A stretch of 64,000 bases of DNA. It comes from Phycisphaerae bacterium. Lineage in GTDB: Bacteria > Planctomycetota > Phycisphaerae > UBA1845. The position numbers were made by a program, and so were the translations under genes. Location of the stretch: NCBI GenBank assembly GCA_963666835.2, contig CAXXGO010000001.1, forward strand, positions 1,344,001 through 1,408,000. Reading direction: 5' to 3'. The notes under the pieces are model-generated. The model had not been told where the DNA came from. It was given only the letters and a program-made list of their open reading frames with translations, and made no database searches. Below, one piece after another: positions 3,416 to 20,339 of the stretch. Each line of letters begins with the position of its first letter. Position 1 is the stretch's first letter.

Positions 3416-4345
3416 ATGTCGATTTTCAACATCGACAACAGCGCTGGGGCTGTGCGCAAAGGTTGGGGTGCCTGCGGCCTGCGTGAAACGACCGATGGTC
3501 GGGTGGCCAGGTTGGGGCGTTGCCAGGCGGATACTGCCGAGACGGTGCGTCGGCTCCGGGGCAAGCTCGAGCGGTATCGGAAGCGGCGGGCTCGGCAGGC
3601 GGGTTGGACGCGCCGGTTTATTCCCACCGGTTTGGTTGCTCTGGATGACGCCTTGCCGCACGGTGGTTTGCCTTGTGGGGCGGTTACCGAAATTCTTTCC
3701 GATGGTTCGGGTGTCGGGGCTATGACACTAGCTATGCGAATCGCTACGAGGATCGAGACCGGTACTGACGAAGGCGTGCCCGAATGTTGCGAGGCGTTTG
3801 ACGATCACCGATATGTGGTTTTGATCGATACGTTTCAGGATTTTTATCCTCCGGCCGCGGCGCAGCGGGGGGTTGCTCTTGATCGGCTCATTGTGATTCG
3901 TCCCAGTGGCCATAAGGAGGCGTTTTGGGCGTTGGATCAATCGTTGCGTTGCCGCGCGGTTGCGGTGGTAATTGCTCCGCTGGTTCAACTTGACGAGGTT
4001 CGGTCTCGCCGTCTTCAGCTTGCCGCGGAGAGCAGCGGAGCGTTAGGGTTGGTATTGGGCGCGGCTCATTGGCGCACCAAGAGTTTCGCCGCCGTGCAGA
4101 TGCTTGTCGAAGGGGCGGGTCGGCGGGAGCTGGTTGATTCGACGTCTGGGATGTTGCCGTCAACGGGGCGGCCGGCGGCGCCGGCGCCGTTTGGCGCTGT
4201 GGAGCCTTATCTCTGTCGTATTACGTTGCGGACGGTTCGGGAAGGGATGCCTGCGGGGCCGTTTATGGTGGATTTGCATCATGAGGCGGGTGTTGGGTCT
4301 GTACCTTCCGTTCCTGTCGACCGACCGGCGGCAAAAACCGGATGA
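3416..4345 (+). CDS. imuA: ImuA-like RecA-family translesion accessory protein
   Basis: IPTGLVALDDALPHGGLPCGAVTEI and RRLQLAAE motifs; directly upstream of imuB/dnaE2. Start uncertain. Confidence 0.85.
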   Translation: MSIFNIDNSAGAVRKGWGACGLRETTDGRVARLGRCQADTAETVRRLRGKLERYRKRRARQAGWTRRFIPTGLVALDDALPHGGLPCGAVTEILSDGSGVGAMTLAMRIATRIETGTDEGVPECCEAFDDHRYVVLIDTFQDFYPPAAAQRGVALDRLIVIRPSGHKEAFWALDQSLRCRAVAVVIAPLVQLDEVRSRRLQLAAESSGALGLVLGAAHWRTKSFAAVQMLVEGAGRRELVDSTSGMLPSTGRPAAPAPFGAVEPYLCRITLRTVREGMPAGPFMVDLHHEAGVGSVPSVPVDRPAAKTG

Positions 4346-5858
4346 CGCTCTGGTCGCTACGATTGCCCTGCAAGGTCAGGTGTTACGCGTGGCCCACGTC
4401 AATCGGCGCGCTGGGGAAGCGGGGGTCCGTCCCGGGCAGACCCTGGCCGAGGCGAAGTCCGTGGCTTTGGATTTGGTTACCTGTGACGACGATCCTGCCG
4501 CCGATCTTCGCCAACTGGAAACACTGGCGGTCTGGGCCGGGCGTTTTTCTCCAACGGTTCATATAGAGGGTGAGAACTCCTTGATGGTGGACGTCACCGG
4601 TAGCGAGCGTTTGTTTGCCGGGGAACGGAATCTGCTCCGTCAGGCGCTAGAGGGGTTGAACGCGGAAGGTTTTTTTGCTCGGGGGGCGATTGCCGATACC
4701 GTCGGAGCGGCATGGGCTGTAACCCACGCTCATCCCGACATCTTCGTGATCGTTCCGCCGGGGCAAACGGCGGCGGAGCTGACCGCTCTGCCGGTATGGT
4801 CTCTACGAATCGATTCTGGAGCGGTGAAAGCTCTGGCTCTGGTCGGGGTGAAGACCATAGCGGTGCTGTTGCATCTGCCGCGTTCTTCTCTGGCGCCTAG
4901 GTTTGGCGAGGGCGTGTTGCGTCGTCTTGACCAGGCTCTGGGCGATATTCCGGAAGTGCTCACGCCTTATCGACCCTGCCCCGCCTTAACCAGTCGGTTT
5001 CACCTTGGAGCCGCTACCACCCGGCTCGACGTGTTGATCGAGGCCGTTCGCCGGGCGTTGGAGTGGTTTTGCGAACAACTGGCGCAGCGGGTGGCGGGCG
5101 TTCGCCGGATGTATCTCACGTTTTACTGTTTCGAGGAAGCGGCCGACCGCGGTTCGCGCAGGTACCCGATTACGCTTGAGCTCAATATGTCCGAACCATC
5201 CCGGTCGGTGGATCATCTCTTTCCGTTGCTGACCGTACTGCTGGACAAAACCGACCTTCCGGCTCCGGCAAATGCGCTAATGTTGTGGGCCCGCGAGGTG
5301 GAGTCGCTGGACGGCCGGCAAGAGGAGTTGTTTGACACCAGCGTGAATGATGCGCGGGAGTTGAGCGGCCTGCTGGATCGGCTGGCCGTGCGGCTCGGTC
5401 GCGAGGCGGTCGTTCGTCCTCGCTTGCTTGGGGAACATCAGCCGGAACGGGCGTTTCGTTATGAATCGTTGGTTGGAGGGCAAGAAACATCACGCGGATT
5501 GTCCGGTTGGGAATCCAGCGGGTCTATACGGACCAAGGCGGCGGCGCAGCCCGGGGGCGGTTTGCCGGAAGAGGAGTTTTTGCCGCCCGGTCCACGTCCG
5601 TTGCGCCTGGTTGCTCAGCCTCTGGAGATTAGTGCTACCGCAGTGACACCGGATGGTCCGCCGGCTGCGTTTCAATGGCGGGGACAGGCGCATGTGCTGG
5701 TGAACAGTGTCGGTCCCGAGCGAATCGAGACCGGCTGGTGGCGTGGTCGGTACGTTCAACGGGACTACTACCGCGTAACGACAGAGTCGGGCCGGCGCTG
5801 CTGGATCTTCCGCCGACGCGATACCAAGCAGTGGTTTCTGCACGGGTGGTTTGATTAG
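4281..5858 (+). CDS. imuB: ImuB, Y-family DNA polymerase-like protein
   Basis: GVRPGQTLAEA, LMVDVTGSERLF and C-terminal GPERIETGWW...RDYYRV...WFLHGWFD. Confidence 0.92.
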   Translation: MRRVLGLYLPFLSTDRRQKPDDALVATIALQGQVLRVAHVNRRAGEAGVRPGQTLAEAKSVALDLVTCDDDPAADLRQLETLAVWAGRFSPTVHIEGENSLMVDVTGSERLFAGERNLLRQALEGLNAEGFFARGAIADTVGAAWAVTHAHPDIFVIVPPGQTAAELTALPVWSLRIDSGAVKALALVGVKTIAVLLHLPRSSLAPRFGEGVLRRLDQALGDIPEVLTPYRPCPALTSRFHLGAATTRLDVLIEAVRRALEWFCEQLAQRVAGVRRMYLTFYCFEEAADRGSRRYPITLELNMSEPSRSVDHLFPLLTVLLDKTDLPAPANALMLWAREVESLDGRQEELFDTSVNDARELSGLLDRLAVRLGREAVVRPRLLGEHQPERAFRYESLVGGQETSRGLSGWESSGSIRTKAAAQPGGGLPEEEFLPPGPRPLRLVAQPLEISATAVTPDGPPAAFQWRGQAHVLVNSVGPERIETGWWRGRYVQRDYYRVTTESGRRCWIFRRRDTKQWFLHGWFD

Positions 5859-8800
5859 ATGCCCGATCGAACCGACGACAGCCGGCACGTTCACCCGGTC
5901 GGTCATTGGCAGCGTGAGGAGTTCGCGGCCGCTCGTCGATCTTACCCGCATCGACATCGATACGCGGAACTGTGCTGCAAGAGCAATTTCTCTTTCCTGC
6001 GCGGGGCGTCTCATCCGGAGGAGTTAGTTCAACGGGCGGCGGAGTTGGGTTATACCGCCTTAGCCATAACGGATCGCAACACGCTTGCCGGGGTCGTTCG
6101 GGCGCATTGTGCGGCCAAGGCCTGCAATCTCAAGCTGATTGTCGGCGCCGAACTAACTCCGATCGATGCCCTACCTGTTACGCTCTACGCCTGCGACCGG
6201 ACAAGCTATGGTCGACTGGCGCGGATCATCACCCAGGGGCGGCGGCGTGCCGTCAAGGGCTCATGCTCGCTTACGTTTGACGATATTGCCCAGTGGTCCG
6301 GGGGACTCATCGCTGCGGTACATGCCGGTGCGGGTGCCATGCCCGAAACCTCGGTCGAAAGGCACGACCCCGGAATCGTCTTTGCGGAGACCTCTACTTC
6401 TCTGAAAGCGGAAGATCCGGCGGTCTACTGTGAGCAAGCTGTCCGCGTTTATCGCGACGTTTTCGGCGATCGTCTCTACCTGCCGGTCAGGGTACACGGG
6501 GGCGCGGATGACGGGCGGTATCTGGCGGAAATAAACAACCTTGCCCGGGCGACCGGGATACCCATGGTAGCGACCAACGACGTTCACTATCACGAACCAC
6601 GGCGGCGGTTTCTGCAGGATGTCCTTACCTGCATCCGCGAGCATTGCACGCTTGATACGGCCGGGCGGAGGCTTTTCGCCAACGCCGAGCGGAATCTCAA
6701 AACGGTCGATGAAATGGGCCGGTTGTTCGCCGATTATCCGCAGGCGCTTGTGCGGACCGGAGAGGTTGCCGACCGCTGCACGTTTACGCTCGACGAGCTG
6801 CGTTACGAATATCCCGAGGCGATCTGCCCGAAAGGCAGGTCGCCGAGCGAGTATCTGGCTGAACTTACCTGGGCAGGAGCGCAGGATCGCTATCCCGACG
6901 GGATCCCGCCGAAAGTCCGCGCCCTGATCCGGCATGAGCTGGAGTTGATTCAGCAACTCGGCTACGAGCCTTATTTTCTCACCGTTCACGATATTGTCGA
7001 GTTTGCCCGTTCTCGCAAGATTCTGTGCCAGGGTAGAGGCAGTGCGGCCAACTCCGCCGTTTGTTATTGCCTGGGGGTCACCGCGGTGGATCCCGGACGG
7101 ATCGATGTCCTGTTCGAGCGTTTCGTCAGCGCCGAACGTGATGAACCGCCCGACATCGACGTCGATTTCGAGCACGAGCGCCGGGAGGAGGTATTTCAAT
7201 ACATCTACGGCAAGTACGGCAGGGACCATGCGGGGATCGTGGCTGAGGTAATTACCTATCGACCCCGCTCGGCCATCCGAGACGTTGGCAAGGTGTTGGG
7301 GCTGTCTCTCGATCGCGTGGGCGCTCTGGCCAAGAAGCACGAATGGTGGAGCAAGGAGGCGTTCGAGGAGGAAACTCTCCGCGAAGCGGGCCTCGATCCG
7401 GCCGATCGCACGGTGCGTATGCTTGGAAAGCTGGTCAACCAGTTGATCGGTTTCCCGCGGCATCTGTCGCAGCATGTGGGGGGCTTTGTCATCACCCGCG
7501 GACCGCTTTGCGAGATGGTGCCGATCGAGAACGCGGCCATGCCTGATCGCACCTTCATCGAATGGGACAAAGACGACATCGACGCCCTCGGCATTCTGAA
7601 GATAGACTGCCTTTCGCTTGGCATGTTGACCGCGATTCGAAAGTGTCTGGGGATGATAAACGAGCGCAGTGCCGCGATTGCGGCTCCTCTCGCCCTCCAT
7701 TCCATCCCATCGGAGGATCCGGCGGTCTACGATATGGTCTGTCGCGCCGATACCGTTGGCGTATTTCAGATCGAAAGCCGCGCTCAGATGAGCATGCTGC
7801 CCCGGCTCAAACCGCGCTGTTATTATGATCTGGTTATCGAAGTCGCCATCGTCCGGCCCGGGCCGATCCAGGGCGGTATGGTGCATCCGTATTTGCGTCG
7901 CCGGGCCGGGGAGGAGCCGGTCAGTTACCCCTGCGAACCTGTTCGGGAAGTGCTCGAAAGGACCCTCGGCGTACCGCTCTTTCAAGAGCAGGCGATGCGC
8001 CTGGCCGTGGTGGCTGCCGGGTTTACGCCTGGGGAAGCGGACCGCTTGCGCCGGGCGATGGGGGCGTGGCGGCGTCACGGGGAGATCGAGCAGTTTCGTG
8101 TCAAGCTCATTGAGGGAATGCGGGCCAACGGCTTAGCGGAGGAGTTCGCCCAACGCTGTTTCGAGCAAATCGCCGGGTTTGGTGAATATGGCTTTCCGGA
8201 GAGTCACGCGGCTTCTTTTGCGTTGTTGGTGTACGTATCGGCTTGGCTGAAACGATATCACCCGGCCGCGTTCTGTGCGGCGCTGCTCAACTCGCAGCCG
8301 ATGGGTTTCTATCATCCCGCCCAACTCGTTCGCGATGCCCGAGCCCACGGGGTAACCGTCCTGCCCGTGGATGTGAATTCCAGCGGATACGATTGCCGGT
8401 TGGAACCTAGTGCGTTTTCCAGAAAAGTCGCTCAAGAACCTCCCCCCTTACCAAGGGGGGATCGAGGGGGGTCTGTTCCGACGGAGAAGAACCTCTCCCG
8501 ACCCCTCCTTGGTAAGGAGGTGGGGAAGAGATTCCGTCACGTTTCTGAGAACGGTTCTAGTATCCAGTGTCGAACCTATGACGCTTCCGGAGAGAGAGAA
8601 CGTGGCAGATCGCGGGTGAAGGACGAGCCGGATCGGTGGGGGAGGGGCGGACCGGCCGTGCGGTTGGGGATGCGGCTGGTCAAGGGGATCTCGCGCACGC
8701 AAGTTGCGGAAATCGAACGGGCGCAACGGGAACGACCTTACACGTCGGTGGCGGATCTGGCGCAGCGATCTCGGGCTCCGCGGGCGACGCTGGCCCGTCT

Positions 8801-9356
8801 GGCTGCCGCCGACGCGCTGGGTTCGCTGGGGTTGGATCGCCGAGAGGCCCTCTGGCAGGTGCTGGCTTTGCACGCTGAACCGCCCATGTTGGATAGCGCG
8901 GAGCCGGCCGAAGCCGATCCGAATCTGCCGGATGCGTCCCTGGCGGAAACCGTGTTTGCGGATTATGAATCCATGGGCCTATCGCTTAATGCCCATCCCA
9001 TGGCACTATTGCGGGACGAGTTGAAACGCGGGCGAGTTTCGCAGGCCCGCGTGCTCCACCACGCCAGAAAAGGGCAACGTCTGAGCGTAGCCGGGCTGGT
9101 GCTGGTCAGGCAGCGTCCCGGTACGGCCGGGGGGATCGTCTTCGGCACGTTGGAGGACGAGACCGGCGTTGCCAATCTGATAATCCGCCCGCGGGTATAC
9201 GAAAAATACCGCCGCGTCGCTCGCGGGGCGGTAGCACTTGTGGCCGAGGGGACGGTCGAACGTACGGGCGAGGTCGTTCACCTTCAGGTTACGCGCCTGC
9301 AGGATCTATCCGAGACCCTCGCCAGCCTTCGAAGCACCTCCCGCGACTTCCATTAG
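5859..9356 (+). CDS. dnaE2: Error-prone DNA polymerase DnaE2 (ImuC)
   Basis: PHP domain SNFSFLRGASHPEEL, GRGSAANS, PPDIDVDFEH, YGFPESHA, OB fold RQRPGTAGG, C-terminal SRDFH. Confidence 0.97.
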   Translation: MPDRTDDSRHVHPVGHWQREEFAAARRSYPHRHRYAELCCKSNFSFLRGASHPEELVQRAAELGYTALAITDRNTLAGVVRAHCAAKACNLKLIVGAELTPIDALPVTLYACDRTSYGRLARIITQGRRRAVKGSCSLTFDDIAQWSGGLIAAVHAGAGAMPETSVERHDPGIVFAETSTSLKAEDPAVYCEQAVRVYRDVFGDRLYLPVRVHGGADDGRYLAEINNLARATGIPMVATNDVHYHEPRRRFLQDVLTCIREHCTLDTAGRRLFANAERNLKTVDEMGRLFADYPQALVRTGEVADRCTFTLDELRYEYPEAICPKGRSPSEYLAELTWAGAQDRYPDGIPPKVRALIRHELELIQQLGYEPYFLTVHDIVEFARSRKILCQGRGSAANSAVCYCLGVTAVDPGRIDVLFERFVSAERDEPPDIDVDFEHERREEVFQYIYGKYGRDHAGIVAEVITYRPRSAIRDVGKVLGLSLDRVGALAKKHEWWSKEAFEEETLREAGLDPADRTVRMLGKLVNQLIGFPRHLSQHVGGFVITRGPLCEMVPIENAAMPDRTFIEWDKDDIDALGILKIDCLSLGMLTAIRKCLGMINERSAAIAAPLALHSIPSEDPAVYDMVCRADTVGVFQIESRAQMSMLPRLKPRCYYDLVIEVAIVRPGPIQGGMVHPYLRRRAGEEPVSYPCEPVREVLERTLGVPLFQEQAMRLAVVAAGFTPGEADRLRRAMGAWRRHGEIEQFRVKLIEGMRANGLAEEFAQRCFEQIAGFGEYGFPESHAASFALLVYVSAWLKRYHPAAFCAALLNSQPMGFYHPAQLVRDARAHGVTVLPVDVNSSGYDCRLEPSAFSRKVAQEPPPLPRGDRGGSVPTEKNLSRPLLGKEVGKRFRHVSENGSSIQCRTYDASGERERGRSRVKDEPDRWGRGGPAVRLGMRLVKGISRTQVAEIERAQRERPYTSVADLAQRSRAPRATLARLAAADALGSLGLDRREALWQVLALHAEPPMLDSAEPAEADPNLPDASLAETVFADYESMGLSLNAHPMALLRDELKRGRVSQARVLHHARKGQRLSVAGLVLVRQRPGTAGGIVFGTLEDETGVANLIIRPRVYEKYRRVARGAVALVAEGTVERTGEVVHLQVTRLQDLSETLASLRSTSRDFH
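8407..8560. mobile_element. Palindromic MITE-like element inserted in frame in dnaE2
   Basis: CTAG at 8407-8410 and 8557-8560 (150 bp apart); imperfect terminal IRs; internal IR CCCCCTTACCAAGGGGGG / CCCCTCCTTGGTAAGGAGG. Confidence 0.75.
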
Positions 9357-10444
9357 GACGCAACTCGCTCCAGAAATGCCGCGATGGCTTCAGCCGTTTC
9401 GTTCGGACGATCGGCGAGCATCATGTGCCCCGCCTCTTTGACAACCAGGATCTCGCCATTGGCAAACAGGTCGGCGTATTGTCGACTGACGGACTCCGGT
9501 TGCAGGTCCTTCTCCCCGTGGAGGACCAACACCGGGGCGTCCACCGCCCGCAGCGCAGCGCTGTAATCATGCCGCCGGCCGAGACCCAGAAACGTGGCCG
9601 TGACCATCCATCCGCCATTGCCTGCGGCTTCGAGTTCGCTCACTACGGCCTGCCCGTCCATGCCAGTAGCTACGGCGAAGTAGTCAGCGAACTGAAGATT
9701 CACCGCCGCGAGTTCCTGCTCGCTCTTGGTGAACACGTCGGCGAAGTTCAGATATTCGGCTTTGAACTCATCGAACTCAGCGCGGCGCGCCTCCGGGATT
9801 CGCTCTCGGATGATCTCAAACAGATCACCTTCCTTTTGCGGGAATACGATCAGATTGGCCGGGGCCGCGAGGATCATCGCTTCTACGTGCTCGGGAAACT
9901 CCGCGGCATAGAGCGAGGCGACAAACCCGCCGAACGAGTGCCCGACTAGTATGATCCGGTTCTGTTTGAGGATCTGCCGGATTCGCTCGATGTCGGCGAT
10001 TTGAGCGGCAAGGCCCAGCGTGCGGTCAAGCTCGAGCATGTTTCTGTAGAAGTTCGTTGAGGGAAACCGGTCGAACGGCTTGGTCGACTTGCCGCATCCG
10101 CGTTGGTGATAGGAATGGACCTCATGAGCCGCGGCCAGGTTGGCCAACCCCGGTGGAACAGTGGAAACGGGGAAACCCGGACCCCCGTGAACAAAGAGAA
10201 TCGGCGGGCCCGACCCTTGAGAGAAGTGGTATAGCTCGATGTCGGGTTCTACCCGCCAGGCGTTTGGATCATCAGGCTGGGGAGGCGGGAGAAGTGGCGA
10301 ACGCAAGGCACTCTCTGCGCGCACCATGCCTGGCTGATAGAGGGGACGGCTCATCAGAGACCAGATCCAGGCTCCACCGGCAATCAGCAGCCCCAGCAAC
10401 GTGGCCGGGACGATAGTCAATATCCGTTTAACAGTCTTGGTCAT
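9353..10444 (-). CDS. Alpha/beta hydrolase (proline iminopeptidase-like) with N-terminal membrane anchor
   Basis: HGGPG, GHSFGG nucleophile elbow, GEKD and AGH catalytic motifs. Confidence 0.9.
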   Translation of the reverse strand: MTKTVKRILTIVPATLLGLLIAGGAWIWSLMSRPLYQPGMVRAESALRSPLLPPPQPDDPNAWRVEPDIELYHFSQGSGPPILFVHGGPGFPVSTVPPGLANLAAAHEVHSYHQRGCGKSTKPFDRFPSTNFYRNMLELDRTLGLAAQIADIERIRQILKQNRIILVGHSFGGFVASLYAAEFPEHVEAMILAAPANLIVFPQKEGDLFEIIRERIPEARRAEFDEFKAEYLNFADVFTKSEQELAAVNLQFADYFAVATGMDGQAVVSELEAAGNGGWMVTATFLGLGRRHDYSAALRAVDAPVLVLHGEKDLQPESVSRQYADLFANGEILVVKEAGHMMLADRPNETAEAIAAFLERVAS

Positions 10445-10448
10445 GGTA

Positions 10449-11372
10449 TCAGCCTCTGTTGTAGGTTACTCCGGCATCCTTCAGAGGAACATAGATGTCC
10501 GTCAACAGATCTTCGGGTCTGGTGCGTTGGGGTGAGTTGCGGTACACCTCGAAACAGCCGACCTCGCGCGGTTCCCGATCATGAGCGGGCAACCATACCC
10601 CCATCAACATTGCGTAAACCGCTCCTAACTGGTCGTACGGTCCGCGATGGGTTGCGATGGCGTGTTCACCTCCGCCGGTGGTCTGCGCACCAATCTCCCC
10701 CTGGGCGACGAAGTCATCGCCTACGCTAATACAAGCGTCGTAGCGGATCTTGTCGCTCGGAGTGACGTCCGGATCGTCGTGGCCGATGCCGAGTACTTTC
10801 GTATCCGGGCCGAACAGCCCGCGCGGCCCGGCCCAGGCCATCAGCTTCTGCCAGGCGGCCCCGGCGTTATCGTAAGGCCCGACGTGCCGGACGAAGGCCA
10901 CGCGAATCGGGTCCACCACTTCGATACGCACCGCGATCGAGTCCTCATCCGCACGGATCGGGCAAAAGCCGGTCAAGGCTCCGTCTGCCGAATAATGTAC
11001 GTTGCTCGGAGATTCAAGTAGCGGCACGCGGCGATGGGCTTCCCGAAAACCGGACGGAGATTCGTCGAACATCGCCCGAAACGATCGCGTGAACGACTCG
11101 TGGGTTTCATAGCCGGCATCGAAGGCGATTCGCGTGATCGGCTGATCGGTCACCTTCAGCCGATGGGCCGCCCGCTCGAGCCGCAAGCGGCGGACGTGCT
11201 CCTTGACCGGCTCCCCGACCATCCCGCGGAACACGCGATGGAAGTGGTACGGCGAGAAGTGGGCCAAGCCCGCCAGCTCTGCGAGGTCCAGCGCGTCGCC
11301 CAGGTGAGCCTGAACGTGAACAAGCACTCGCAGGATCCGCTGTTCATAGTCTTGTTGAGTAGCTGTCTTCAT
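10449..11372 (-). CDS. AraC-family transcriptional regulator with GyrI-like effector domain
   Basis: AHFSPYHFHRVF...RLRLERAA...IAFDAGY HTH plus C-terminal HRGPYDQL...FEVYRNSP...TDIYVPL; start taken at MKTATQQ. Confidence 0.92.
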   Translation of the reverse strand: MKTATQQDYEQRILRVLVHVQAHLGDALDLAELAGLAHFSPYHFHRVFRGMVGEPVKEHVRRLRLERAAHRLKVTDQPITRIAFDAGYETHESFTRSFRAMFDESPSGFREAHRRVPLLESPSNVHYSADGALTGFCPIRADEDSIAVRIEVVDPIRVAFVRHVGPYDNAGAAWQKLMAWAGPRGLFGPDTKVLGIGHDDPDVTPSDKIRYDACISVGDDFVAQGEIGAQTTGGGEHAIATHRGPYDQLGAVYAMLMGVWLPAHDREPREVGCFEVYRNSPQRTRPEDLLTDIYVPLKDAGVTYNRG

Positions 11373-11497
11373 GATCGTCTCAGGATAGCAACCTCGCGGC
11401 CGCCCGGCTTGACGGTTCTTGCGAATTCCGAACCGGCGGCGGTGCGTGTCGAGGAATCGGCCTTCGGGGCCCGCCAGCCAACCACCGGAGTACGTGA

Positions 11498-11662
11498 GGG
11501 CGGGTCTTATGACGAGGTAGCGTTCCACCGAGCCCACGGTGTTTGGGCTGCAATTGCCCGAGCGTGGCGGATCTTATGGCTCAAGGATATGAATGATACA
11601 CTTTGTCCGCCGCAATCGTCCGAGCCGGGCGGATCTTATGGCAAGATAGCGTTCCACCGGGG
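11498..11662. repeat. Three degenerate direct repeats GGCGG(A/G)TCTTATG(A/G)C between araC and tRNA-Val
   Basis: Copies at ~11498, ~11566 and ~11627; first and third extend with TAGCGTTCCACCG. Confidence 0.7.
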
Positions 11663-11719
11663 CTTGGTCCGGGTCGGGGGCCGTCAGCAAGACGGCGTCT
11701 TGCCAGCGGTAGGTGGGCA

Positions 11720-11748
11720 TTGACAGCCCGGCAGGCTTGAATTCTAAT
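11720..11748 (+). promoter_or_regulatory. sigma70 promoter of tRNA-Val
   Basis: TTGACA-N17-TCTAAT, 13 nt upstream of the tRNA. Confidence 0.75.
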
Positions 11749-11761
11749 GTCCCGCCGCTGA

Positions 11762-11835
11762 GGGCGATTAGCTCAGTTGGCCAGAGCGCCTGCTCGACAC
11801 GCAGGAGGTCACAGGTTCAAGTCCTGTATCGCCCA
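11762..11835 (+). tRNA. tRNA-Val(GAC)
   Basis: GGGCGAT/ATCGCCC acceptor stem, anticodon arm CCTGC-TC-GAC-AC-GCAGG, T-loop GGTTCAAGTCC; CCA not encoded. Confidence 0.97.
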
Positions 11836-14626
11836 GTTGTAAACCGCTTGTGAGGCAAGCACTTATGGCGGTTTTCTCATGCGCACTTGCTTTCCGGGAC
11901 TAGGCGCTTGAGGTTTCCATACCAGGCGTTCGGACCGCGTTTTCTGGTCCGTAGCGCGCGTGTTCTGCGGACCATTCGTGCGCTCGCCGCCTGCTGGTAT
12001 TAGCAGGCGTTTCTAGGCAATCGACTTCGCATCACCCGCTGGCCGTTCGCGACCGCCACGAGCGGCCAAACCGCCACTGCAACGGTCAACGCTGGGATCG
12101 GACGATTGGCGACGTTGCGTGCTTCCCTGCCTACCCATCGTCTGCCGGCAGTGGGGAGCCTGATTCTGCGTCACCAGACGACGTGTAGGCCTGGCCCGGC
12201 TGGTTCGGCATGTCCGGGTATCGCAGGCGCAGCAAGCCTTCTCGGACCATCGGCTTCAGAAACCGATCCTGGAGCCCGGCTGCTGCGCGCTCCATCAGCT
12301 CGGCAATGAGTGCCGCCGTGAGGTATCGGCCTCGGCACAAGGCTTCGACGATTTCCCGAGTCGTGTCCGGCGCCAGGCGACGCCCCTGGCGTGCGGGGGC
12401 CGCGATCCGACGCAGATCTTCCAGGACCTCAGGGGCTAGGTCGTGAAGCGCTCGCGGCGAGTTTCCCTGACAATCGCGCTGGGAGCCGGTCGCCTCATGC
12501 GGAGAGTCTCCGGGTTTATGTGGGGAGTCTCCGTCCTTATGTGGGGAGCCTTCGTTCTTATGTGGGGAGTCTCCCGTCTTGTGGGGGGACCCGTCCGGTC
12601 CGCTCCCCTGGACATCCCCAAGGCGATACATTGCGCCTCGTTTTCGCCCCTTCTGCACCAGAAAGCCGCGTTTCGCGAGGTGCTGCAGCATCTGCGTCAG
12701 AGCGGCAGGATGTTGGTCCGTGATTTCCCGCATGCGCGCGTTGGTCACCTGCTTCTCCGCGTGGGCCGTGACCAACGCTTGAACCTCCTGTTCACCCAGG
12801 CACTCGAACTCGCCGCCAAAGCGTCGCTTAAGGTCATCCAAGACTTCGTCGGGCATCAAGCTGACCATGGGCATCTCAAGTAGGACCCTCGACGGTCGAT
12901 CGCGTTCCTCAATGCGCGGGTCACGCCAGTGTTGCGATCGCCAGCCCTGTCGAATCTTGTCAATGCCGGAGCCGGCCTTCTCGGCCGCTCCGATCATCAG
13001 GAACATCGTCTGCAACGCTTTGTTGCGACACTCGCTGACTCCGCCCGCGAGCAGCTGGTCGTGCGAGACGAGCAACGTTCCTGGATTCGACACCTCGAAC
13101 CGATCACGGAACTTGTCGATGACGATACCGCCCTCGCCGCGGTAATCCGCATGGATCATGGCGTTAACCAGGGCCTCACGAATGGCTTCGTGGACGATGG
13201 TCTCGCCGCGACGGAACAGATCCGATTCAAGTTGAAACGGGAGTTTCAGGTCTGCCGCCAATCGCTGAACAACGCGGAGGTAGAACTGAAGAACATTGGC
13301 CTCCCAAGTGCCGTCCGCGTGCAACCGATCCGTCCATCGCACATCAGGATCGTCGGATAGGTGCTCGCGGTAGTCGACATGATACCCGGGAACCGCCTCC
13401 GGCAAGCGGACCACGTCCACTCTGCCGAACATTAGTAGGCCCGCTACCGTGAGCCCTTCTTGGTCGCTGTTTCGGTCCCTTCGCCAGCCGCCCAGTTTCG
13501 TCAAGAAGCCGGTCAGATCCTCACCCAGCCATGGATGCGTCGGTGTTCTCGCCGAGAAACGCTGCCGATACTGCTGGACGCTTGCTTCGTCCAGATCATC
13601 GAGCCCGAAACCCTCCAGAATCAGGGAATCAGCGGGCTCATCTGATCGGTCGGCCAGCATCCGGCTGACTTCCTGCTCTGAACAGTGATAATCCCCCTCG
13701 TAGTCTCGCCGATACGTCCCGATCAGCGGGTTCTGCCCGACATACACTGGCCGCTGCTGCCGCGTTGCTCTGGGAACCCGGATCACCAGCACAGACTTAC
13801 CGTTCCCGGGCTGTTCCGCGACATCACCATCGGTCAGCAGGTTGATGCTGATCTTGCCTCGGTTGTTGACCGTGTTCCAGAAGTCTTGTCGCATTCGACC
13901 CGGATCGGCGAGGCCGGTCACTTGGCCGTCCGATGCGACGCCCAGCACGATCACGCCGCCGTCCGTGTTCGCCATAGCGCTGTACGTTTCCCAAAGGCTC
14001 TTAGGCAATCCACCTTTGGCCGACTTGAACTCCAGATCGCAGTCTTCTTGCAGGTCAAGCGGTACGGAAGAAGGAGCTGGGTCCGTGGAACGTGCCATGA
14101 TCCGTGCGACTCCCTGCAAACATCGATGCTCTCGATCAGGCCATCACCGGTCGACCGCCACGCTTTCATCTCGATCGGGCGATCGGGTGTTCCGCGCAAT
14201 CCCCCGCCGATTGGGTTCGCATCATTGTGCGGTCCGGGAATGCCAATGTCCAGGCTGGCTCAGTGATAGTGTACACGCCCGGCGGCGCCGTGTTCCCGCT
14301 GCTACAAGCGGTGGGCGGTCGCGAAACGCCTGGGAGGCGCACACCCGGACAAGCCTGCGAAGGACTCGGGGCTTTGACGAGTTGACCGCAGCACCGTGTG
14401 TGGCAAGGTGCCCGTGTGCGAGATGGTAACGGGCGCATCCAAACGACCGGAACTTCGACTAGGCGCTTGGCTTGCACGGATTGCCGCAAATCAGCCGGTT
14501 TTTCCACATTAAGCGTCTAGTCAGAGTATTGCCTAACACATTGCACAACAGTAACTTACAGGACATATAGGGGTTGCTCGACACGCAGGAGGTCACAGGT
14601 TCAAGTCCTGTATCGCCCAGTTGTAA
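11791..14626. mobile_element. tRNA-Val-integrated islet bounded by attL/attR-like repeats, no integrase
   Basis: Perfect 52-bp direct repeat of the tRNA 3' half at 11791-11842 and 14575-14626. Confidence 0.85.
12131..14119 (-). CDS. Schlafen/AlbA_2 domain + HATPase_c_4 (RecG C-terminal-like) + winged-helix protein
   Basis: EDCDLEFKSA...YSAMANTDGGVIVLGV, IREALVNAMIHADY, SECRNKALQTMF, EKAGSGIDKI; contains a 7-aa GDSPHK-type tandem repeat. Confidence 0.88.
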   Translation of the reverse strand: MQGVARIMARSTDPAPSSVPLDLQEDCDLEFKSAKGGLPKSLWETYSAMANTDGGVIVLGVASDGQVTGLADPGRMRQDFWNTVNNRGKISINLLTDGDVAEQPGNGKSVLVIRVPRATRQQRPVYVGQNPLIGTYRRDYEGDYHCSEQEVSRMLADRSDEPADSLILEGFGLDDLDEASVQQYRQRFSARTPTHPWLGEDLTGFLTKLGGWRRDRNSDQEGLTVAGLLMFGRVDVVRLPEAVPGYHVDYREHLSDDPDVRWTDRLHADGTWEANVLQFYLRVVQRLAADLKLPFQLESDLFRRGETIVHEAIREALVNAMIHADYRGEGGIVIDKFRDRFEVSNPGTLLVSHDQLLAGGVSECRNKALQTMFLMIGAAEKAGSGIDKIRQGWRSQHWRDPRIEERDRPSRVLLEMPMVSLMPDEVLDDLKRRFGGEFECLGEQEVQALVTAHAEKQVTNARMREITDQHPAALTQMLQHLAKRGFLVQKGRKRGAMYRLGDVQGSGPDGSPHKTGDSPHKNEGSPHKDGDSPHKPGDSPHEATGSQRDCQGNSPRALHDLAPEVLEDLRRIAAPARQGRRLAPDTTREIVEALCRGRYLTAALIAELMERAAAGLQDRFLKPMVREGLLRLRYPDMPNQPGQAYTSSGDAESGSPLPADDG

Positions 14627-14650
14627 CCCCTTTCGAATAAAGCACTTATC

Positions 14651-14830
14651 GTGGGTTGGGCTCTGCTTAAGGTAGGTTGGGCTCCGCCCGACGCTGGGCT
14701 TCGCCCGTTCTTGAGGTGATCGCGCATCCGGGCTGATTAACTGCGAAAGCCAAGTAGGTCGAGTTCTGCCCCACGCTGGAGTTTGGCACTTAACTAGTCA
14801 ACGCAGCCAAGTAGGTCGGGCTCTTCCCAA
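14651..14830. repeat. Cluster of GTAG-type REP elements
   Basis: GTAGGTTGGGCTCCGCCCGAC (14672), GTAGGTCGAGTTCTGCCCCAC (14754), GTAGGTCGGGCTCTTCCCAA (14811); same family as the REPs flanking the RAYT. Confidence 0.85.
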
Positions 14831-15003
14831 TGGTACCAACCTCGTCAGGCAGTCGTGCGGTAATCCGTCCCGAAGGGGACGAAGGCATGTAGCCACGGGT
14901 GGAGCGAAGCGGAACCCGTGGGGCCGGTTCGCCTCCACGTGCCCACGTCCCGAAGGGCCGGAGGACGGTTTCAGGGATCGCCCGAAGGCCCGAATGGCCA
15001 CAG
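14810..15003 (+). repeat. ~195-bp REP-linked palindromic element, copy 1
   Basis: Aligns in inverted orientation with 61575-61770; core CGTCCCGAAGGG...AGCCACGGGTGGAGCGAAGCGGAACCCGTGG. Confidence 0.85.
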
Positions 15004-15465
15004 ACAGCGGACGATAGTCGGCTTCGGACGTGTTGCCACCGTGCCGCAACACGATGTTGCGCGCGTTGTTCGACCCACTTCGGGGTTGGTCTGAGAAGGG
15101 GCTTCGTGACCCCAGGCGGCACTCCGCGGCTGCGCCGCTCCGTTTGCCCCTGGGCTTTGATGGGTAGCGCGTTCGTCCCACTCCTGCATGGCGGCGGTTG
15201 CCGCCACGCACAGGGGGCAAAACCACATATCCACAACACCGCGTTTCCGCTGTTATCCGGCGTGCGACGGTCTTTCCCGCTTGACGAATCTTGGCGAATA
15301 CGCCGAGAACTCGGTATCATGCCGGGAATATCTGCTCGTCGCCGCGGCTACCTCGTTGTCCCGCTGGCAGCGTAGACGCTGGGGGGAATCGGCATGGATG
15401 TTCCCGGGCTCTGTTCGTTTTCTGTCTTCGAGTTTCTTGCCGAAACTGCTTTGAGGTAGATCGCG

Positions 15466-16059
15466 GTGCCCACGGTCCACATTCCAACCCGGTACTCGGA
15501 GAAAGTGACGGGCTCCACACGCATCTACCTCATGCTGCTGCCATTGGTTATGGGCACGCTTACCCTGGGCCTGGCTCAACTGGCAGTGCGGTGTGTCGCA
15601 GGAAAGGCAGCGTTCGCTCCGGCTGCGGCGGAGGTCCTGCGCTGGCCACTGAGCATGCGTGGTACATTGGGTGTGTCGTTCGCTTGGACTCTCGTTCCCT
15701 TCGTCGGCCTGACCCTCTGGATTCTCGTGCTGAGTAGGAAGCGGTTGCGAAGACAGTGCTTTCTGTTTCTGTGATGTGGATTGCTGGGGATCTTCTGCCT
15801 GTTGGTGCCGGTTTACGCCGCTTATTGGAGTACCATCTACGTTGGCGCACGGGTGGGACCGAACGACGGCATGATCTTCCTCTTCGTGCCGATCTGCGCG
15901 ATATTGCCCATGCACATCGGATTGCTCATCGCCGCCGTCATCGCGAAGTTCCGTTGGTTTCGACTCCCTCCGCCAGGCTACTGCAGCGCCTGCCGATACA
16001 ACCTCACCGGGAACGAGTCCGGCACCTGTCCCGAATGCGGGAGGGCGGTCTCCTCATGA
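15466..16059 (+). pseudogene. Multi-TM protein with C-terminal zinc ribbon (array member 1), interrupted by in-frame TGA
   Basis: ORFs 15466-15774 and 15781-16059 are in the same frame across TGA 15772-15774; GAGGT SD; ends CSACRYNLTGNESGTCPECG. Confidence 0.7.
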
Positions 16060-16619
16060 TCCGCAACATCATCCTGATCGGCTGTGTGCTGGGGGCTGTT
16101 GTCTATGCTGTTGCGTGGGTGGTTCTGGCCTTTCCGGTATCGACGGCGTCCTACTGGATATCTGAAGGCCGAAGAGTGGCCTTCCATCCGGCGCCCGACG
16201 GCAGCTCGATCTCATTGTACTTCGGAGCTAATCGATGGGTCCGCGGCGAGATGGAATGGTATTGGCGCCGGGACTACTGGATGAGTATCCGTTTTCGGCC
16301 GTATCGGTTCGGTGTTTCACTCTACGACTTCACGGAGGGTTCGAGCAACCTTACCTTCAGGTCGATGAGCTTCGGAGGCTTCAGTTGGGGGCAGAGTAAG
16401 GGGCGCGGGCGTATCGGTGAGAAGGAGTCCCGGAGGCTCGCGGTGCCAACATGGTTCCCGTTCGTTGTCCTGTCTGCGTACCCAACACTCGTATTTATCC
16501 GTGGTCCTGCGCGTCGTTGGCGCCGGAGAAGACGCGGCCTGTGCCTGACGTGCGGGTACAACCTGGAGGGGAACGTATCGGGCGTCTGTCCGGAATGTGG
16601 GTCGGAGATCGCGTCGTGA
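16056..16619 (+). CDS. 2-TM protein with C-terminal zinc ribbon (array member 2)
   Basis: ATGA overlap with member 1; TM-loop-TM-poly-Arg-CLTCGYNLEGNVSGVCPECG. Confidence 0.85.
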   Translation: MIRNIILIGCVLGAVVYAVAWVVLAFPVSTASYWISEGRRVAFHPAPDGSSISLYFGANRWVRGEMEWYWRRDYWMSIRFRPYRFGVSLYDFTEGSSNLTFRSMSFGGFSWGQSKGRGRIGEKESRRLAVPTWFPFVVLSAYPTLVFIRGPARRWRRRRRGLCLTCGYNLEGNVSGVCPECGSEIAS

Positions 16620-17233
16620 TCCGCAAGTTCCTGAGAGTGTTCCGCGTCGCTGTCATCGTCGGGTTGACGTTGGGGGCGGTTGCGTTTGTCGTCGTATGGG
16701 TGGTTCAGGCCTATCCCGAAGCAGCGTTCCATTGGGGCTCTGAGAACGGGAGGTTGCATGTTCTTCAGGCACCGCCTGTCAGTATGATCAGCCTGCATTT
16801 CGGAGACAAGCGGCAGGTCGGCCGGGGATGTCAGGCGTGCGTCCTGTCGGATCACGAGCTGGCTCTTGCGATCTGCCCAGATCGAGTCATTGTGGATTAC
16901 CTGAACCGTGTAGAGGATCTGAGAGGCGTGACATCCAGACGGGGTGGCTTCCGGAACTTCGGATGGGACAAGACGATCGATGGTCGCGGATGCGGCGGCG
17001 GGCCATGTGTGGAGCGGGGCGTCTACCTGCCGAACTACCTTGTGCTCGTCGCCTTGGTGGCCTATCCAGCACTCGTCTTCATGCGCAGCCCAGCGCGCCG
17101 CCGCCGCCACCACCGTCGCCACAAACGTGGCCTCTGCGTTGGCTGTGGTTATGAACTAACCGGCAACGTCACCGGTGTCTGCTCCGAGTGCGGCGCCGCT
17201 ATCGATCCCAAGCAGGCTGAGGCCACCGGATAA
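16616..17233 (+). CDS. 2-TM protein with C-terminal zinc ribbon (array member 3)
   Basis: GTGA overlap with member 2; ends CVGCGYELTGNVTGVCSECG. Confidence 0.85.
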   Translation: MIRKFLRVFRVAVIVGLTLGAVAFVVVWVVQAYPEAAFHWGSENGRLHVLQAPPVSMISLHFGDKRQVGRGCQACVLSDHELALAICPDRVIVDYLNRVEDLRGVTSRRGGFRNFGWDKTIDGRGCGGGPCVERGVYLPNYLVLVALVAYPALVFMRSPARRRRHHRRHKRGLCVGCGYELTGNVTGVCSECGAAIDPKQAEATG

Positions 17234-17238
17234 CCACC

Positions 17239-17727
17239 ATGCGGACCATCTTTCGGAAACGGCGATTCCTGAAGTGGGCGGGGTTGGTGGCGTGCGCGGT
17301 GATGATAGTTGCGTTCTTCGCATCCCCGTATTGGAACGTGTCCGGGCACATCGGGCCTTACCTTGCTGCAGTCAGTAATGGAGCTGTCTATGTCATCCGG
17401 TTTGAAGACTGGATCACACCTTTTTGGGGGGTTCGACGGAATCCCGGAGGCGAGCCGTATGTGTGGTGGCTTGACTACTGGCCGCCTGCCAGGTTCTCGC
17501 ATTGGTGCGCCGTGATACCGCTCTGGATCCCCCTGACGATAGTAGCCGTCCCAACGTTCTTGGCATGGCGGCGCGATCGCCGGATTCCGCCCGGTCACTG
17601 TGCGAGCTGCGGATACGATCTGACGGGGAACGTGTCGGGTCGGTGTTCGGAGTGCGGTACGCTCGTGCCCCAGCAAACAGCCTGCGGCGAGTCGATAGCC
17701 CGGTCTCAGGAGGATGAGAACAAGTGA
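17239..17727 (+). CDS. 2-TM protein with C-terminal zinc ribbon (array member 4)
   Basis: Starts 5 nt after member 3; IPLWIP TM then RRIPPGHCASCGYDLTGNVSGRCSECG. Confidence 0.85.
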   Translation: MRTIFRKRRFLKWAGLVACAVMIVAFFASPYWNVSGHIGPYLAAVSNGAVYVIRFEDWITPFWGVRRNPGGEPYVWWLDYWPPARFSHWCAVIPLWIPLTIVAVPTFLAWRRDRRIPPGHCASCGYDLTGNVSGRCSECGTLVPQQTACGESIARSQEDENK

Positions 17728-17871
17728 CCGCTGGAAGGGGTCGGTACACCGGGCGAGCGGGAGGAGAATCGGGTGTCATGGAAGGGTGGGATTCACGTGG
17801 CCTGGAGGGGTCTGGTGTCCCGCGAGTCACGCAATCGCTCGGAGGGATCGGCGATGATGCTCCCAAGCAAA

Positions 17872-17928
17872 GTAGGTCGGGTTTTGCCCGGCGCTAAAGA
17901 CAAGTAGCTCGGCCGGAGCCCGATCTAC
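17872..17928. repeat. REP doublet
   Basis: GTAGGTCGGGTTTTGCCCGGC followed by inverted TCGGCCGGAGCCCGATCTAC. Confidence 0.75.
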
Positions 17929-18142
17929 GGTGCTGGCAGCGGGCCCATCATTCTTGAGTGTGTCCTCGAGTCCGTCAGAAACCCCGCGATTGTCGAGTGG
18001 GGTGTCTGGTTAAGTGACACTTCGTGTTGCTTGAAGCCAACTCCAACGTCCGGTAAAATAACGTGCTCATTCTCCGCGCGATCTCGGAGGGGCGGGGTTG
18101 TCTTACCGGGTGCGTGGGTTTCATGTTTGGGGAGGGTCTGCG

Positions 18143-19258
18143 ATGTCGCGATTCGGTTGTGCTGCGGTGGTGTTCCTGATCGTGCTCTGTGCATCAAGCG
18201 TGCGGGCTGAGGTCGTCATCGAAACGGTGACCGTGGTGAATCCCACGAACGCGCCTGATTCGGAGATCATGGATGACTATACGACCGGTTATGGTGGTGT
18301 CAGTTACGCCTACGATATCGGCAAGTTCGAGGTAACGGCCGGGCAGTATGCGGAGTTCCTCAATGCCGTGGCAGAAGAGGATCCGTACGGGCTGTACAGC
18401 TTGTTCATGTTTTCGTCGAAGTTCGGATGCAAGATCCGGCGGACCGGGAGTTCGGGCAGCTATTCCTATCTGGTGGATGCCGACGAGGATGACGTCGAGG
18501 ACGCCGACTGGCTGAACCGGCCGGTTAACTACGTGTCGTGGGGCGATGCCGCTCGTTTCGCAAACTGGCTGCACAATGGCCGGCCAACCGGTGCTCAGGA
18601 TCCGAGCACAACGGAAGACGGGGCGTATCACCTCAACGGGGCCACGAGCGATGCCGAGCTGATGGCCGTTGCGCGCAGTGTGAACGCCACGTGGGTGATT
18701 CCGTCAGAGGACGAGTGGTACAAGGCTGCATACCACAAGAACGACGGCGTGACGGGAAACTACTGGTACTTTCCCACGGGCAGCAACAACATGCCGAGTA
18801 ATGAGCTGGTCGACCCGATCGACCCGGGCAATAACGCGACGTTCTACTACCCGGACATCTTCACCATCGACCGCCCTTACTATCGCACCGAGGTCGGTGC
18901 TCATGAGAACTCGGGCAGCCCATACGGCACGTTCGACCAGGGCGGGAACGTCCTCGAGTGGCACGAGACGGCAATCGCGTCGTATCGCGGTCTCCGCGGC
19001 GGGGCGTTCCGCTTCTACTTCAAGGATGCCGCTAATCTGGACGCGTCATACCGCGTCGGCAACAACCCGACGTACGAGAACGGCATCATCGGGTTCCGCG
19101 TTGCCCAAGTGCCCGGCGAAACCTGCGACGGACTGGACGGCGATGGCGATGGCGACGTTGATCTTGCTGACTTTGCGGTCTTCCAGGTCGGTTTCAGTGC
19201 TGGCGACCTTGCCGGCTACGCGGCTTTTCCCTATTGCTCCCGTGGGATTGGCGGATAG
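18143..19258 (+). CDS. Secreted FGE-sulfatase/SUMF1 (C-type lectin fold) protein with dockerin-like tail
   Basis: Signal peptide; IGKFEVTAGQY, RPVNYVSWGDAARFANWL, PSEDEWYKAA, FDQGGNVLEW, RGG...GFRV; DGDGDVDLADF tail. Confidence 0.92.
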   Translation: MSRFGCAAVVFLIVLCASSVRAEVVIETVTVVNPTNAPDSEIMDDYTTGYGGVSYAYDIGKFEVTAGQYAEFLNAVAEEDPYGLYSLFMFSSKFGCKIRRTGSSGSYSYLVDADEDDVEDADWLNRPVNYVSWGDAARFANWLHNGRPTGAQDPSTTEDGAYHLNGATSDAELMAVARSVNATWVIPSEDEWYKAAYHKNDGVTGNYWYFPTGSNNMPSNELVDPIDPGNNATFYYPDIFTIDRPYYRTEVGAHENSGSPYGTFDQGGNVLEWHETAIASYRGLRGGAFRFYFKDAANLDASYRVGNNPTYENGIIGFRVAQVPGETCDGLDGDGDGDVDLADFAVFQVGFSAGDLAGYAAFPYCSRGIGG

Positions 19259-19439
19259 CGCGGGTGGGGGACGGGTGAGACTCCGACGGGAACTGCACTC
19301 GGCAATCAGTTTCCCACTCTTCGCCTGGGGCTTAGTGTGTATGCCGTGACAGCGTCCATATACGGGGGTATTTTTGTCTACCGTGAGATAACACAGGGCG
19401 AAGGATGGAGCACCCTGGCTGGTAATCAGAGAGACAGGC

Positions 19440-20339
19440 ATGGCTGACCATTGCGTCCTCGGCATCGGCGAGCTTCTGTGGGATTGCTTCGGCAATACCC
19501 GTCGGCCCGGCGGGGCACTGGCCAACGTTGCCTTTCATGCAACGCAACTCGGCGTGCGGGGGCGGGTGTGTTCGCGAGTCGGGTATGATGACCTTGGTGA
19601 TGCCCTGCTTGGCGAGCTGAGCGGGCATGGCGTGGATACTACGTTGATTCAACGGGGCGCCTCGCATCCGACCGGTACGGTGACCGTAGATACTACGCAC
19701 CCGTCGGCCCCGACATATACGATTCACGAAAACGCAGCCTGGGACTACGTCGAATTCGACACGATGCTGGAGGAAGCTGCGGCCCGGGCCTCCGCCGTTT
19801 GCTTCGGGACGCTTGCCCAGCGGTCGCGGCAATCAAAGGAGACGATACACCGTGTCCTCGATGTCGTCCCGGAGGCAATGGTGGTCTATGATCTGAATCT
19901 GCGACCGCCGTGGTACGACCGGAACACGATCGAGTCATCTCTCAATCGCTGCACCGTGGCGAAGCTGAATGAGGACGAGGCTGAGCGGTTGGCGGACCTG
20001 CTCGGCTTTGGCGCATTGGATGCAGCCGATTGCGCGGCACATCTACTTTCGCGGTTTAGTATTACACTTGTTTGCGTCACTCGCGGCCCGAGGGGCTGCC
20101 TCCTCATTACCGATGCGGAACACGTGGATCAACCGGGGCTTACCGTGGAGGTTGCCGACGCCGTAGGTGCCGGAGACGCTTTCACGGCGGCGCTTGTCTG
20201 TGGCCTTCTCTGGAAATGGCCGCTTTCGGCCGTGGCCAGGTTCGCGAACGGCGTGGGAGGGCTCGTGGCAAGTCGGAACGGCGCGATGCCTGACTTGGCT
20301 GAAGAGTACCGGATTTTGCGCGAGAGTGTTTGCACGTAA
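19440..20339 (+). CDS. PfkB-family carbohydrate kinase (fructokinase-like)
   Basis: GIGELLWD, PGGALANVA, FGTLAQR, DAVGAGDAF. Confidence 0.93.
   Translation: MADHCVLGIGELLWDCFGNTRRPGGALANVAFHATQLGVRGRVCSRVGYDDLGDALLGELSGHGVDTTLIQRGASHPTGTVTVDTTHPSAPTYTIHENAAWDYVEFDTMLEEAAARASAVCFGTLAQRSRQSKETIHRVLDVVPEAMVVYDLNLRPPWYDRNTIESSLNRCTVAKLNEDEAERLADLLGFGALDAADCAAHLLSRFSITLVCVTRGPRGCLLITDAEHVDQPGLTVEVADAVGAGDAFTAALVCGLLWKWPLSAVARFANGVGGLVASRNGAMPDLAEEYRILRESVCT

Follow-up and report, generated by a model that had tools for sequence, protein, structure and literature searches.

The locus described here raises the question of whether a row of membrane-protein genes with one common C-terminal motif is a fixed operon or a set of units that can be exchanged. 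It lies in a stretch of 64,000 nucleotides (nt) from a Phycisphaerae bacterium (GenBank assembly GCA_963666835.2, contig CAXXGO010000001.1, positions 1,344,001 to 1,408,000 of the forward strand; hereafter the window, numbered from its first letter), in which four consecutive genes (genes 1 to 4) end in the codons of a four-cysteine (Cys4) knuckle. The original prediction, made from this sequence alone, described a modular family in which the loops vary, the Cys4 tail is constant and recombination within the conserved 3' module does the shuffling. Two mapped crossovers and the statistics of the gene junctions bore out this description, and we consider it highly probable that whole units are gained, lost and swapped at the knuckle codons.

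Layout of the array and its junctions

Four frames on the same strand terminated at 16059, 16619, 17233 and 17727, and all four genes were closed by the motif C-x2-C-x-Y-x-L-x-G-N-x-[ST]-G-x-C-[PS]-E-C-G, which was preceded by a basic stretch and in which 11 residues separated the two CxxC pairs (Table 1). The gene junctions were ATGA (16056-16059), GTGA (16616-16619) and a gap, corresponding to 4-nt overlaps between genes 1 and 2 and between genes 2 and 3 and to a 5-nt spacing between genes 3 and 4. Shine-Dalgarno (SD)-like runs were present 11 nt upstream of the gene 2 start (GGAGG) and 8 nt upstream of the gene 3 start (GGAG), both at or just past the CPECG codons of the preceding gene. The shared motif, the junctions and the placement of the SD-like runs had all been noted before and were confirmed from the sequence. 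An ATGA or GTGA stop also closed 84 of 199 motif copies in other genomes.

Divergent loops between the transmembrane (TM) helices had been ascribed to the whole array. We found them in genes 2 to 4; in gene 1, four hydrophobic helices are predicted and a beta-rich loop is absent. Additionally, gene 1 is broken by an in-frame TGA at 15772-15774, which the earlier reading overlooked. Its paralog in the same genome (G000:C3:438493-437900; hereafter the C3 paralog), with 92.6% nt identity across 757 bp, has TGG at the position of the stop and is intact, with 197 amino acids (aa). A truncated 102-aa piece of gene 1 is on record on two contigs, which may or may not be independent, and a full-length relative at 36% identity was also found.

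Table 1. Features of the array and its surroundings (window coordinates)
Feature	Position	Strand	Remarks
Putative sigma-70-like promoter site, TTGGCG-18-TATCAT	15291..15320	+	9/12 match; 2 sites found versus 0.7 expected
Gene 1, lead gene: four predicted TM helices and C-terminal Cys4 knuckle	15466..16059	+	Interrupted by in-frame TGA
Junction block 1: knuckle codons, SD-like GGAGG, ATGA overlap	15982..16066	+	Crossover point at about 16010-16015 (paralog switch; X3 contig departs at 16010)
Gene 2, 187 aa: TM1, predicted 7-strand beta-sheet, TM2 into Arg-rich helix, Cys4 knuckle	16056..16619	+	AlphaFold; unit absent from second allele
Gene 3, 205 aa: chimera of B-type head and A-type loop	16616..17233	+	Head/loop identity comparison
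Gene 4, 162 aa, terminal-type: TM1, predicted 5-strand beta-sheet, TM2, knuckle	17239..17727	+	Last knuckle gene in 4 of 6 arrays
tRNA-Val(GAC) and 3' duplicate bounding a 2.8-kb islet	11762..14629	+	Outside the array
Left repeat cluster: three GTAG-type REP-like copies and a larger high-copy hairpin repeat	14665..15175		Context, not shown to act on the array
Right REP-like copy	17865..17920		Family D3, 84% to reference

Exchange of units at the knuckle codons

Comparison of the window with the array of the C3 paralog revealed the first crossover. The two arrays agreed from 15311 to about 16010-16015 and then ran into different tails and next genes. The gene 1 body showed 91-100% aa identity and a proportion of synonymous differences (pS) of 0.05-0.12, and the copies parted at the YNLTG codons, with a pS of 0.48 in the knuckle.

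The second crossover separates two alleles of the locus itself. Assemblies of four of the seven listed sequencing runs, none of which was labelled as RNA, were compared with positions 10500-19500 of the window. The listed pieces of run X1, one of them spanning genes 1 to 3 (15907-17243), showed zero differences, and X1 may be the source of the window. Run X3, from another study, contained a 1503-nt contig (depth 4) that followed the window over 15178-16010 with 8 differences, passed through 10 letters, and continued over 16581-17243 with 14 differences and 3 gap letters. The net loss of 560 nt is the exact spacing of the two knuckles, and gene 1 was joined in register to the gene 2 tail and gene 3. 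It is unlikely that the contig arose by mis-joining with the paralog: it starts upstream of the paralog homology (15311), crosses the genome-unique loop of gene 3, and carries junction letters that differ from those of the paralog. The content of the array is thus not invariant but differs between two alleles. The arrangement of the paralog would weakly favour an insertion of gene 2 rather than its deletion. A joint of 16015-16590 in run X6 was discarded as an allele because it carries letters of the C3 paralog's junction.

Across 29 junctions, the identity to the left of the knuckle was uncorrelated with that to the right (rho 0.07, P 0.14) in an identity comparison made without a formal tree test. 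In terms of types, an x-x-I-D-P tail was followed by a terminal-type head at five of five junctions, an SE tail by a B head at four of four, and an RA tail by an A head at five of seven; the three TE-tail junctions split 2 to 1, and there was one ME tail. The parts of one gene therefore differ in history, and a gene's 3' end keeps its association with the 5' end of its successor. Gene 3, a chimera of head and loop, suggests that exchange also takes place in a second zone, located in the first TM helix: its head was 33-58% identical to A-type heads, and its loop was 41-42% identical to two A-type loops. As the sole query, the gene 3 loop matched only its own allele.

Six arrays in the genome

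Counting the paralogs and arrays of this genome, as had been proposed, gave 85 loose and 38 strict motif matches in six frames and six arrays of 3-6 knuckle genes, in addition to single genes. The reversed control gave 0 and 0, so the matches are not due to chance. The pattern YTGGCG-N18-TATCRT had eight matches genome-wide, and four of these were located directly upstream of four of the six arrays. Junction blocks were mostly 70-89% identical in nt among the arrays, whereas the loops were mostly without a match. The gene 4 type ended four of the six arrays, and six of the 22 recognisable gene heads in the six arrays were broken.

Three of the six arrays lay less than 4 kb from a tRNA (expected 0.09 each, P ~0.01, with the threshold chosen afterwards), and two adjoined the same small serine-recombinase element. 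The copies of this element (L019:12157-15139 and L020:2767-5774) contain a serine recombinase and a DnaX-like ATPase, stand back to back with the two arrays, and include an open reading frame (ORF) that we take to be ArdC-like. Homology between the copies stops at the -10 box of the arrays, where homology to the window array starts. Direct repeats flanked two other loci: an array at G000:C1:260569-264500 lies between repeats of 593 bp (94.8%), and a single knuckle gene at C6:566486-568412 lies between repeats of 443 bp (97.3%). Both repeats resemble what we presume to be RAYT-transposase fragments, and the genome contains nine Y1_Tnp matches.

Size and spread of the family

A search with gene 4 returned 13,419 representatives at 50% identity (E up to 0.001), many of which presumably match through the tail only. 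Matches to gene 2 were found in 29 of 30 relatives of the same family or order, and the gene 4 alignment found matches in 44 of 121 genomes of the class, among them every one of the 16 from the same order. In a pattern scan that matched at least 129 stretches, 75 of the 80 listed loci were in entries titled as Planctomycetota lineages, many of them as Phycisphaerae, and arrays were seen in many genera. The strict DNA pattern, which is narrow and bounds the subfamily only, was found in 0 of 200 other genomes sampled evenly across the phylum. Matches in the ESM Atlas were unnamed clusters of Planctomycetota. A metagenome scan with the gene 1 paralog gave one locus, by the motif only, and a single IMG/VR contig carried the knuckle pattern (L166:4656-4714) and may be host DNA. 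At L016:6772-7902, two units are fused in frame into a 369-aa protein; multi-unit proteins were common among the database matches.

No Pfam or NCBIfam model exceeded its cut-off for the four array proteins, and the family therefore does not map to a characterised function in these databases. None of the four was matched in PHROGs at E 0.01, and the anti-phage models of PADLOC gave only one weak BrxB row (E 0.026). Generic Cys4 ribbon models (DZR PF12773, DUF7129 PF23455, RUBY_RBDX PF21349, Zn_ribbon_LapB PF18073 and NF033497) also describe two CxxC knuckles ending in CPxCG; however, their matches to single units fell below the cut-offs and covered the last 25 residues only, leaving the body of TM helix, sheet and TM helix uncovered. 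We found no paper on the family in the literature searched, the coverage of which excluded subscription journals and supplements.

Predicted structure and topology

The AlphaFold models of gene 2 and gene 4 had mean predicted local distance difference test (pLDDT) values of 91.5 and 89.6, respectively, and showed the same order of TM1, beta-sheet, TM2 and knuckle; the two types are homologous (profile probability 99.9). Genes 3 and 4 have two predicted TM helices with basic ends on both sides, and gene 1 has four. The second helix of gene 2 fell below the hydropathy threshold, yet it was helical in the AlphaFold model. The predicted fold is a hairpin that has both termini and the knuckle inside and bears an open antiparallel beta-sheet on its outer side; by the positive-inside rule, the sheet would be periplasmic and the knuckle cytoplasmic. 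The metal of the knuckle may be zinc or iron.

Structural comparison with known proteins revealed nothing clear. Foldseek gave no match at E 0.001; in a comparison with the Claudin/TARP-like fold of TM helix, sheet and TM helix, its rows were at E 0.19 or worse, with TM-scores of 0.25 or less. The best VIA-align matches, with Z-scores of 7.3 (root mean square deviation (rmsd) 6.3, 60 aligned) and 6.7 (rmsd 5.1, 78 aligned), were mostly helical hairpins, and a sequence search of the PDB matched only the CPECG word of designed zinc fingers.

A predicted TM segment was present in 82 of the 85 motif frames, which were read from stop to stop and may thus slightly inflate this share, compared with 1019 of 3376 other genes and 19 of 56 other genes with a CxxC..CxxC arrangement. 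Among 20 non-array carriers scanned, one RDD protein above the cut-off had the knuckle at its C-terminus (L180:1-819); matches to Yip1- and PrsW-like proteins were weak, and only RDD passed the cut-off. Because of this TM enrichment and the knuckle on the RDD protein, we regard the knuckle as a portable tag of membrane proteins.

Selection on loops and knuckles

The ratio of nonsynonymous to synonymous substitution (dN/dS) was estimated by the pooled Nei-Gojobori method in three paralog groups, with loop alignments that are rough, as most pairs share 22-46% identity. In this comparison of loop and tail, which had been suggested for the array, dN/dS was 0.53-0.73 in the loops, 0.33-0.57 in the heads, 0.18-0.39 in TM2 and the basic helix, and 0.03-0.08 in the knuckle, where it was saturated in one of the three groups. 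Positive selection on the loops was not borne out, as their dN/dS stayed under 1. The gene 3 allele P0246 differed from the window by 9 residue replacements and one deletion.

Proposed function and alternatives

We read the locus, tentatively, as a strain-variable operon in which variable, periplasm-facing binding sheets are mounted on a common cytoplasmic docking tag, with units swapped at the knuckle and probably selected by conflict with phages or toxins; taken as a whole, this reading falls a little short of being probable. A crossover in the knuckle would keep the frame and carry along the ribosome site and start of the next gene, so that the exchanged unit would consist of the 3' end of one gene and most of the next. 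An incoming gene could then be expressed at once from the putative promoter of the shared leader. The sheet would bind a ligand, the knuckle would dock on a shared partner, and the role would be defensive. The case for conflict is circumstantial and is drawn from the turnover, the strain variation, the proximity of mobile sites, and the use of the same shuffling mode by immunity arrays. Sensing, immunity and phage exclusion, the roles named in the original prediction, are likewise conjectural.

Several points weigh against this reading. Ligand binding, partner docking and the defensive role are steps that we infer. The second allele is one contig of depth 4 from one run, matched at 85% likeness, and its 10 junction letters match neither window copy, so the event was not a simple fresh deletion and may have run in either direction. 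The knuckle DNA is diverged, with a longest exact match of 10 nt between the junctions of genes 1 and 2, which is short for RecA-type exchange, and the broken heads could partly be assembly errors. No toxin, sigma factor, recombinase or other partner recurred among 336 neighbouring ORFs within 2.5 kb at 159 foreign loci, some of which overlap and 44 of which are under 1 kb. Finally, loop dN/dS was below 1 in all three groups, and the gene 3 allele pair had 7 of its 9 replacements in the loop (P 0.10); relaxed constraint explains these data equally well.

Relaxed constraint would be expected if the family evolved by birth and death under weak selection, with a generic task at the membrane (as a scaffold, in quality control or as a tag for localisation), drifting loops, and recombination as a by-product of repeats. 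This account, which we consider possible if unlikely, agrees with a dN/dS that never rose above 1, with the broken heads and the stop in the lead gene of the window array, with the lack of conserved neighbours, and with the presence of the knuckle on many unrelated membrane proteins. It fits less well with loops that retain a confidently predicted beta-sheet and a dN/dS of 0.5-0.7 despite 22-46% identity of most paralog loops, and 13,419 clusters with arrays in many genera are much to maintain by drift.

Alternatively, the sheets might each bind a different nutrient, polymer or envelope cue and signal through the knuckle to a regulator, for example an extracytoplasmic function (ECF) sigma factor or a protease, which we judge to be quite unlikely. 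One-to-one sensor systems usually keep the regulator adjacent, whereas only 2 of the 336 ORFs fell into an ECF-like cluster; moreover, fast gain and loss and the proximity of mobile sites fit conflict better. The predicted topology is nevertheless sensor-like, the knuckle occurs on RDD and, more weakly, on Yip1- and PrsW-like membrane proteins, and zinc ribbons are found in envelope-stress contexts of other bacteria (PMC11237479, in the available part of which planctomycetes are absent).

The conflict reading also has a more far-reaching form, which seems to us rather doubtful: a clade-wide library resembling immune receptors, in which thousands of interchangeable periplasmic beta-sheet binders would present the same knuckle to one cytoplasmic effector and would be renewed at a crossover block that encodes both the output domain and the translation start of the next gene.

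A rubredoxin-type Fe(Cys)4 centre in the knuckle, serving electron transfer or oxidation sensing at the inner membrane, is very unlikely. The arrangement C-x2-C-G-Y...C-P-x-C-G does resemble the C-terminal domain of rubrerythrin (NF033497, E 0.001-0.005), and RUBY_RBDX matched 4 of 93 members, but these matches were below the cut-offs (16.6-18.7 bits versus 32 for NF033497 and 12.1 versus 26.5 for RUBY_RBDX), zinc-ribbon models matched equally, and the hypervariable outer sheets would be left unexplained.

Route of exchange

Exchange is likely to proceed by homologous recombination followed by a filter for in-register products, because the crossovers are in register and no site or recombinase was found. 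In particular, the best score to the integron integrase model TIGR02249 in this genome (92% complete) was 89.4 bits against a cut-off of 265, from a XerD-like gene, and neither attC-type non-coding sites between the genes nor a fixed DNA site across the 199 copies from other genomes was detected. The Asn codon of the knuckle was AAC in 29 of 29 copies of this genome; elsewhere, it was AAC in 166 of 199 copies versus a background of 73 of 92, and the other codons vary freely. A hidden att site in the knuckle codons was rejected, as the invariance of AAC is lost in other genomes; the knuckle is conserved as protein and not as DNA.

The dedicated cassette system suggested by the original prediction thus found no support in an integrase above the cut-off or in a DNA-level site. 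Insertion of cassettes by a site-specific recombinase, directed to a DNA site within the knuckle codons and downstream of a common promoter, is extremely improbable. In its favour, a promoter-like leader is common to four of the six arrays, both mapped crossovers lie within a few bases of the G-N codons, AAC is invariant in this genome and an XerD-like gene lies beside one array; against it, AAC is not invariant elsewhere, the integrase score is far below the cut-off, the X3 junction lacks AAC, and no recombinase recurs beside the 159 foreign loci.

Reverse transcriptases, which would be expected beside the targets of a diversity-generating retroelement, were not found beside the arrays: the genome has 14 RVT_1 matches, none of them close to the three arrays on C1 or anywhere on contigs C3 and C5. 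For the loops of genes 2 to 4, a near-identical second copy was not seen in the genome. Twelve of the reverse-transcriptase matches, on C6, C1 and C7, have near-equal scores and lie mostly in 508-aa frames; they probably represent one recently spread family of group II introns.

Comparison with known systems

The following comparisons rest on the parts of the cited papers that were available. In the lpl cluster of Staphylococcus aureus, tandem paralogs are arranged so that the conserved unit spans two adjacent genes (Tsuru and Kobayashi 2008, PMC2568036). As in lpl, tandem paralogs are here reshuffled at a conserved block within the gene, and the unit runs from the 3' end of one gene across the junction into the 5' part of its successor. 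In contrast, lpl genes encode unrelated proteins, namely lipoproteins, whereas here a Cys4 knuckle is encoded by the block, which sits at the 3' end, is conserved in protein rather than DNA sequence and carries the coupling overlap. Segmentally variable genes in general have also been described (PMC387263).

The esaG and tipC immunity arrays of the type VII secretion system (Garrett et al. 2022, PMC9484751) and the orphan-immunity arrays of the Vibrio type VI secretion system (Kirchberger et al. 2017, PMC5361080) are strings of non-identical paralogs in which recombination at homology blocks drives expansion and contraction, and their content varies among strains. The present arrays share with them non-identical paralogs, homology blocks and strain-variable content. 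Unlike those arrays, which have a cognate toxin in the locus, the six arrays of this genome are scattered, no such toxin was found in them, and no sequence match is known.

GltJ of Myxococcus and ZitP of Caulobacter are membrane proteins in which a cytoplasmic Cys4 zinc ribbon binds MglB and PopZ, respectively (PMC11135422), and a cytoplasmic Cys4 ribbon on a membrane protein is likewise predicted for the array proteins. However, the ribbon of GltJ is N-terminal, with cysteines 5, 8, 28 and 31 and 19 residues between the pairs, whereas the knuckle is C-terminal with 11. In contrast to the knuckle family, GltJ and ZitP are not described as multi-copy arrays in the available part of PMC11135422. 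What is new here is that the crossovers are mapped, that an allele differing by one unit is described, that arrays are seen to share a leader, and that a fixed DNA site was tested for.

Genomic surroundings of the array

The array had been described as bracketed by clusters of repetitive extragenic palindromic (REP) repeats. Repeats are indeed present on both sides, with REP-like repeats of family D3 at 14665-14834, a larger hairpin repeat with some 60 genomic matches at about 14830-15175, and a D3 match at 17865-17895 on the right. The bracketing is not general, as high-copy repeats on both sides were found for two of the six arrays (the window array was not counted under that rule) versus 11.5% of 1686 random gene blocks, and a role of the REP repeats gained no support.

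The array had also been placed just outside a tRNA attachment site. The tRNA-Val gene (11762-11835) has a real 55-bp duplicate (98%) at 14575-14629, and the array starts about 840 bp beyond it. The islet between tRNA and duplicate carries a 21-bp tandem repeat (12493-12597) and a single gene, which encodes Schlafen AlbA_2 and HATPase_c_4 domains; gene calling found no integrase there. Run X3 gave little or no cover of the islet at 12005-14412 and no contig joining across it, which proves nothing.

Secreted sulfatase-like genes of the formylglycine-generating enzyme (FGE) type follow the window array (18143-19258) and occur after and inside the paralog array (L019:847-5286 and 8504-9469); the genome has about 10 related copies. 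Tandem genes at 4290-9356 of the window are presumably ImuB-like and DnaE2-like. Among the called neighbours of the six arrays, no toxin or secretion cluster was found; ORFs that we take to be Rhs-like lie about 3 kb past one array.

Implications

The family appears to be very large, has no curated model and represents a missing Pfam entry. In-register exchange at the knuckle swaps whole genes that are already coupled, and it provides direct evidence of change in an array. If the loops merely drift, the arrays would be a second example of a mechanism in which the unit spans two genes. If the sheets are receptors, they would form a new system of polymorphic recognition in a bacterial class that is little studied, and a partner of the 20-residue knuckle could point to a function for some 80 membrane proteins per genome.

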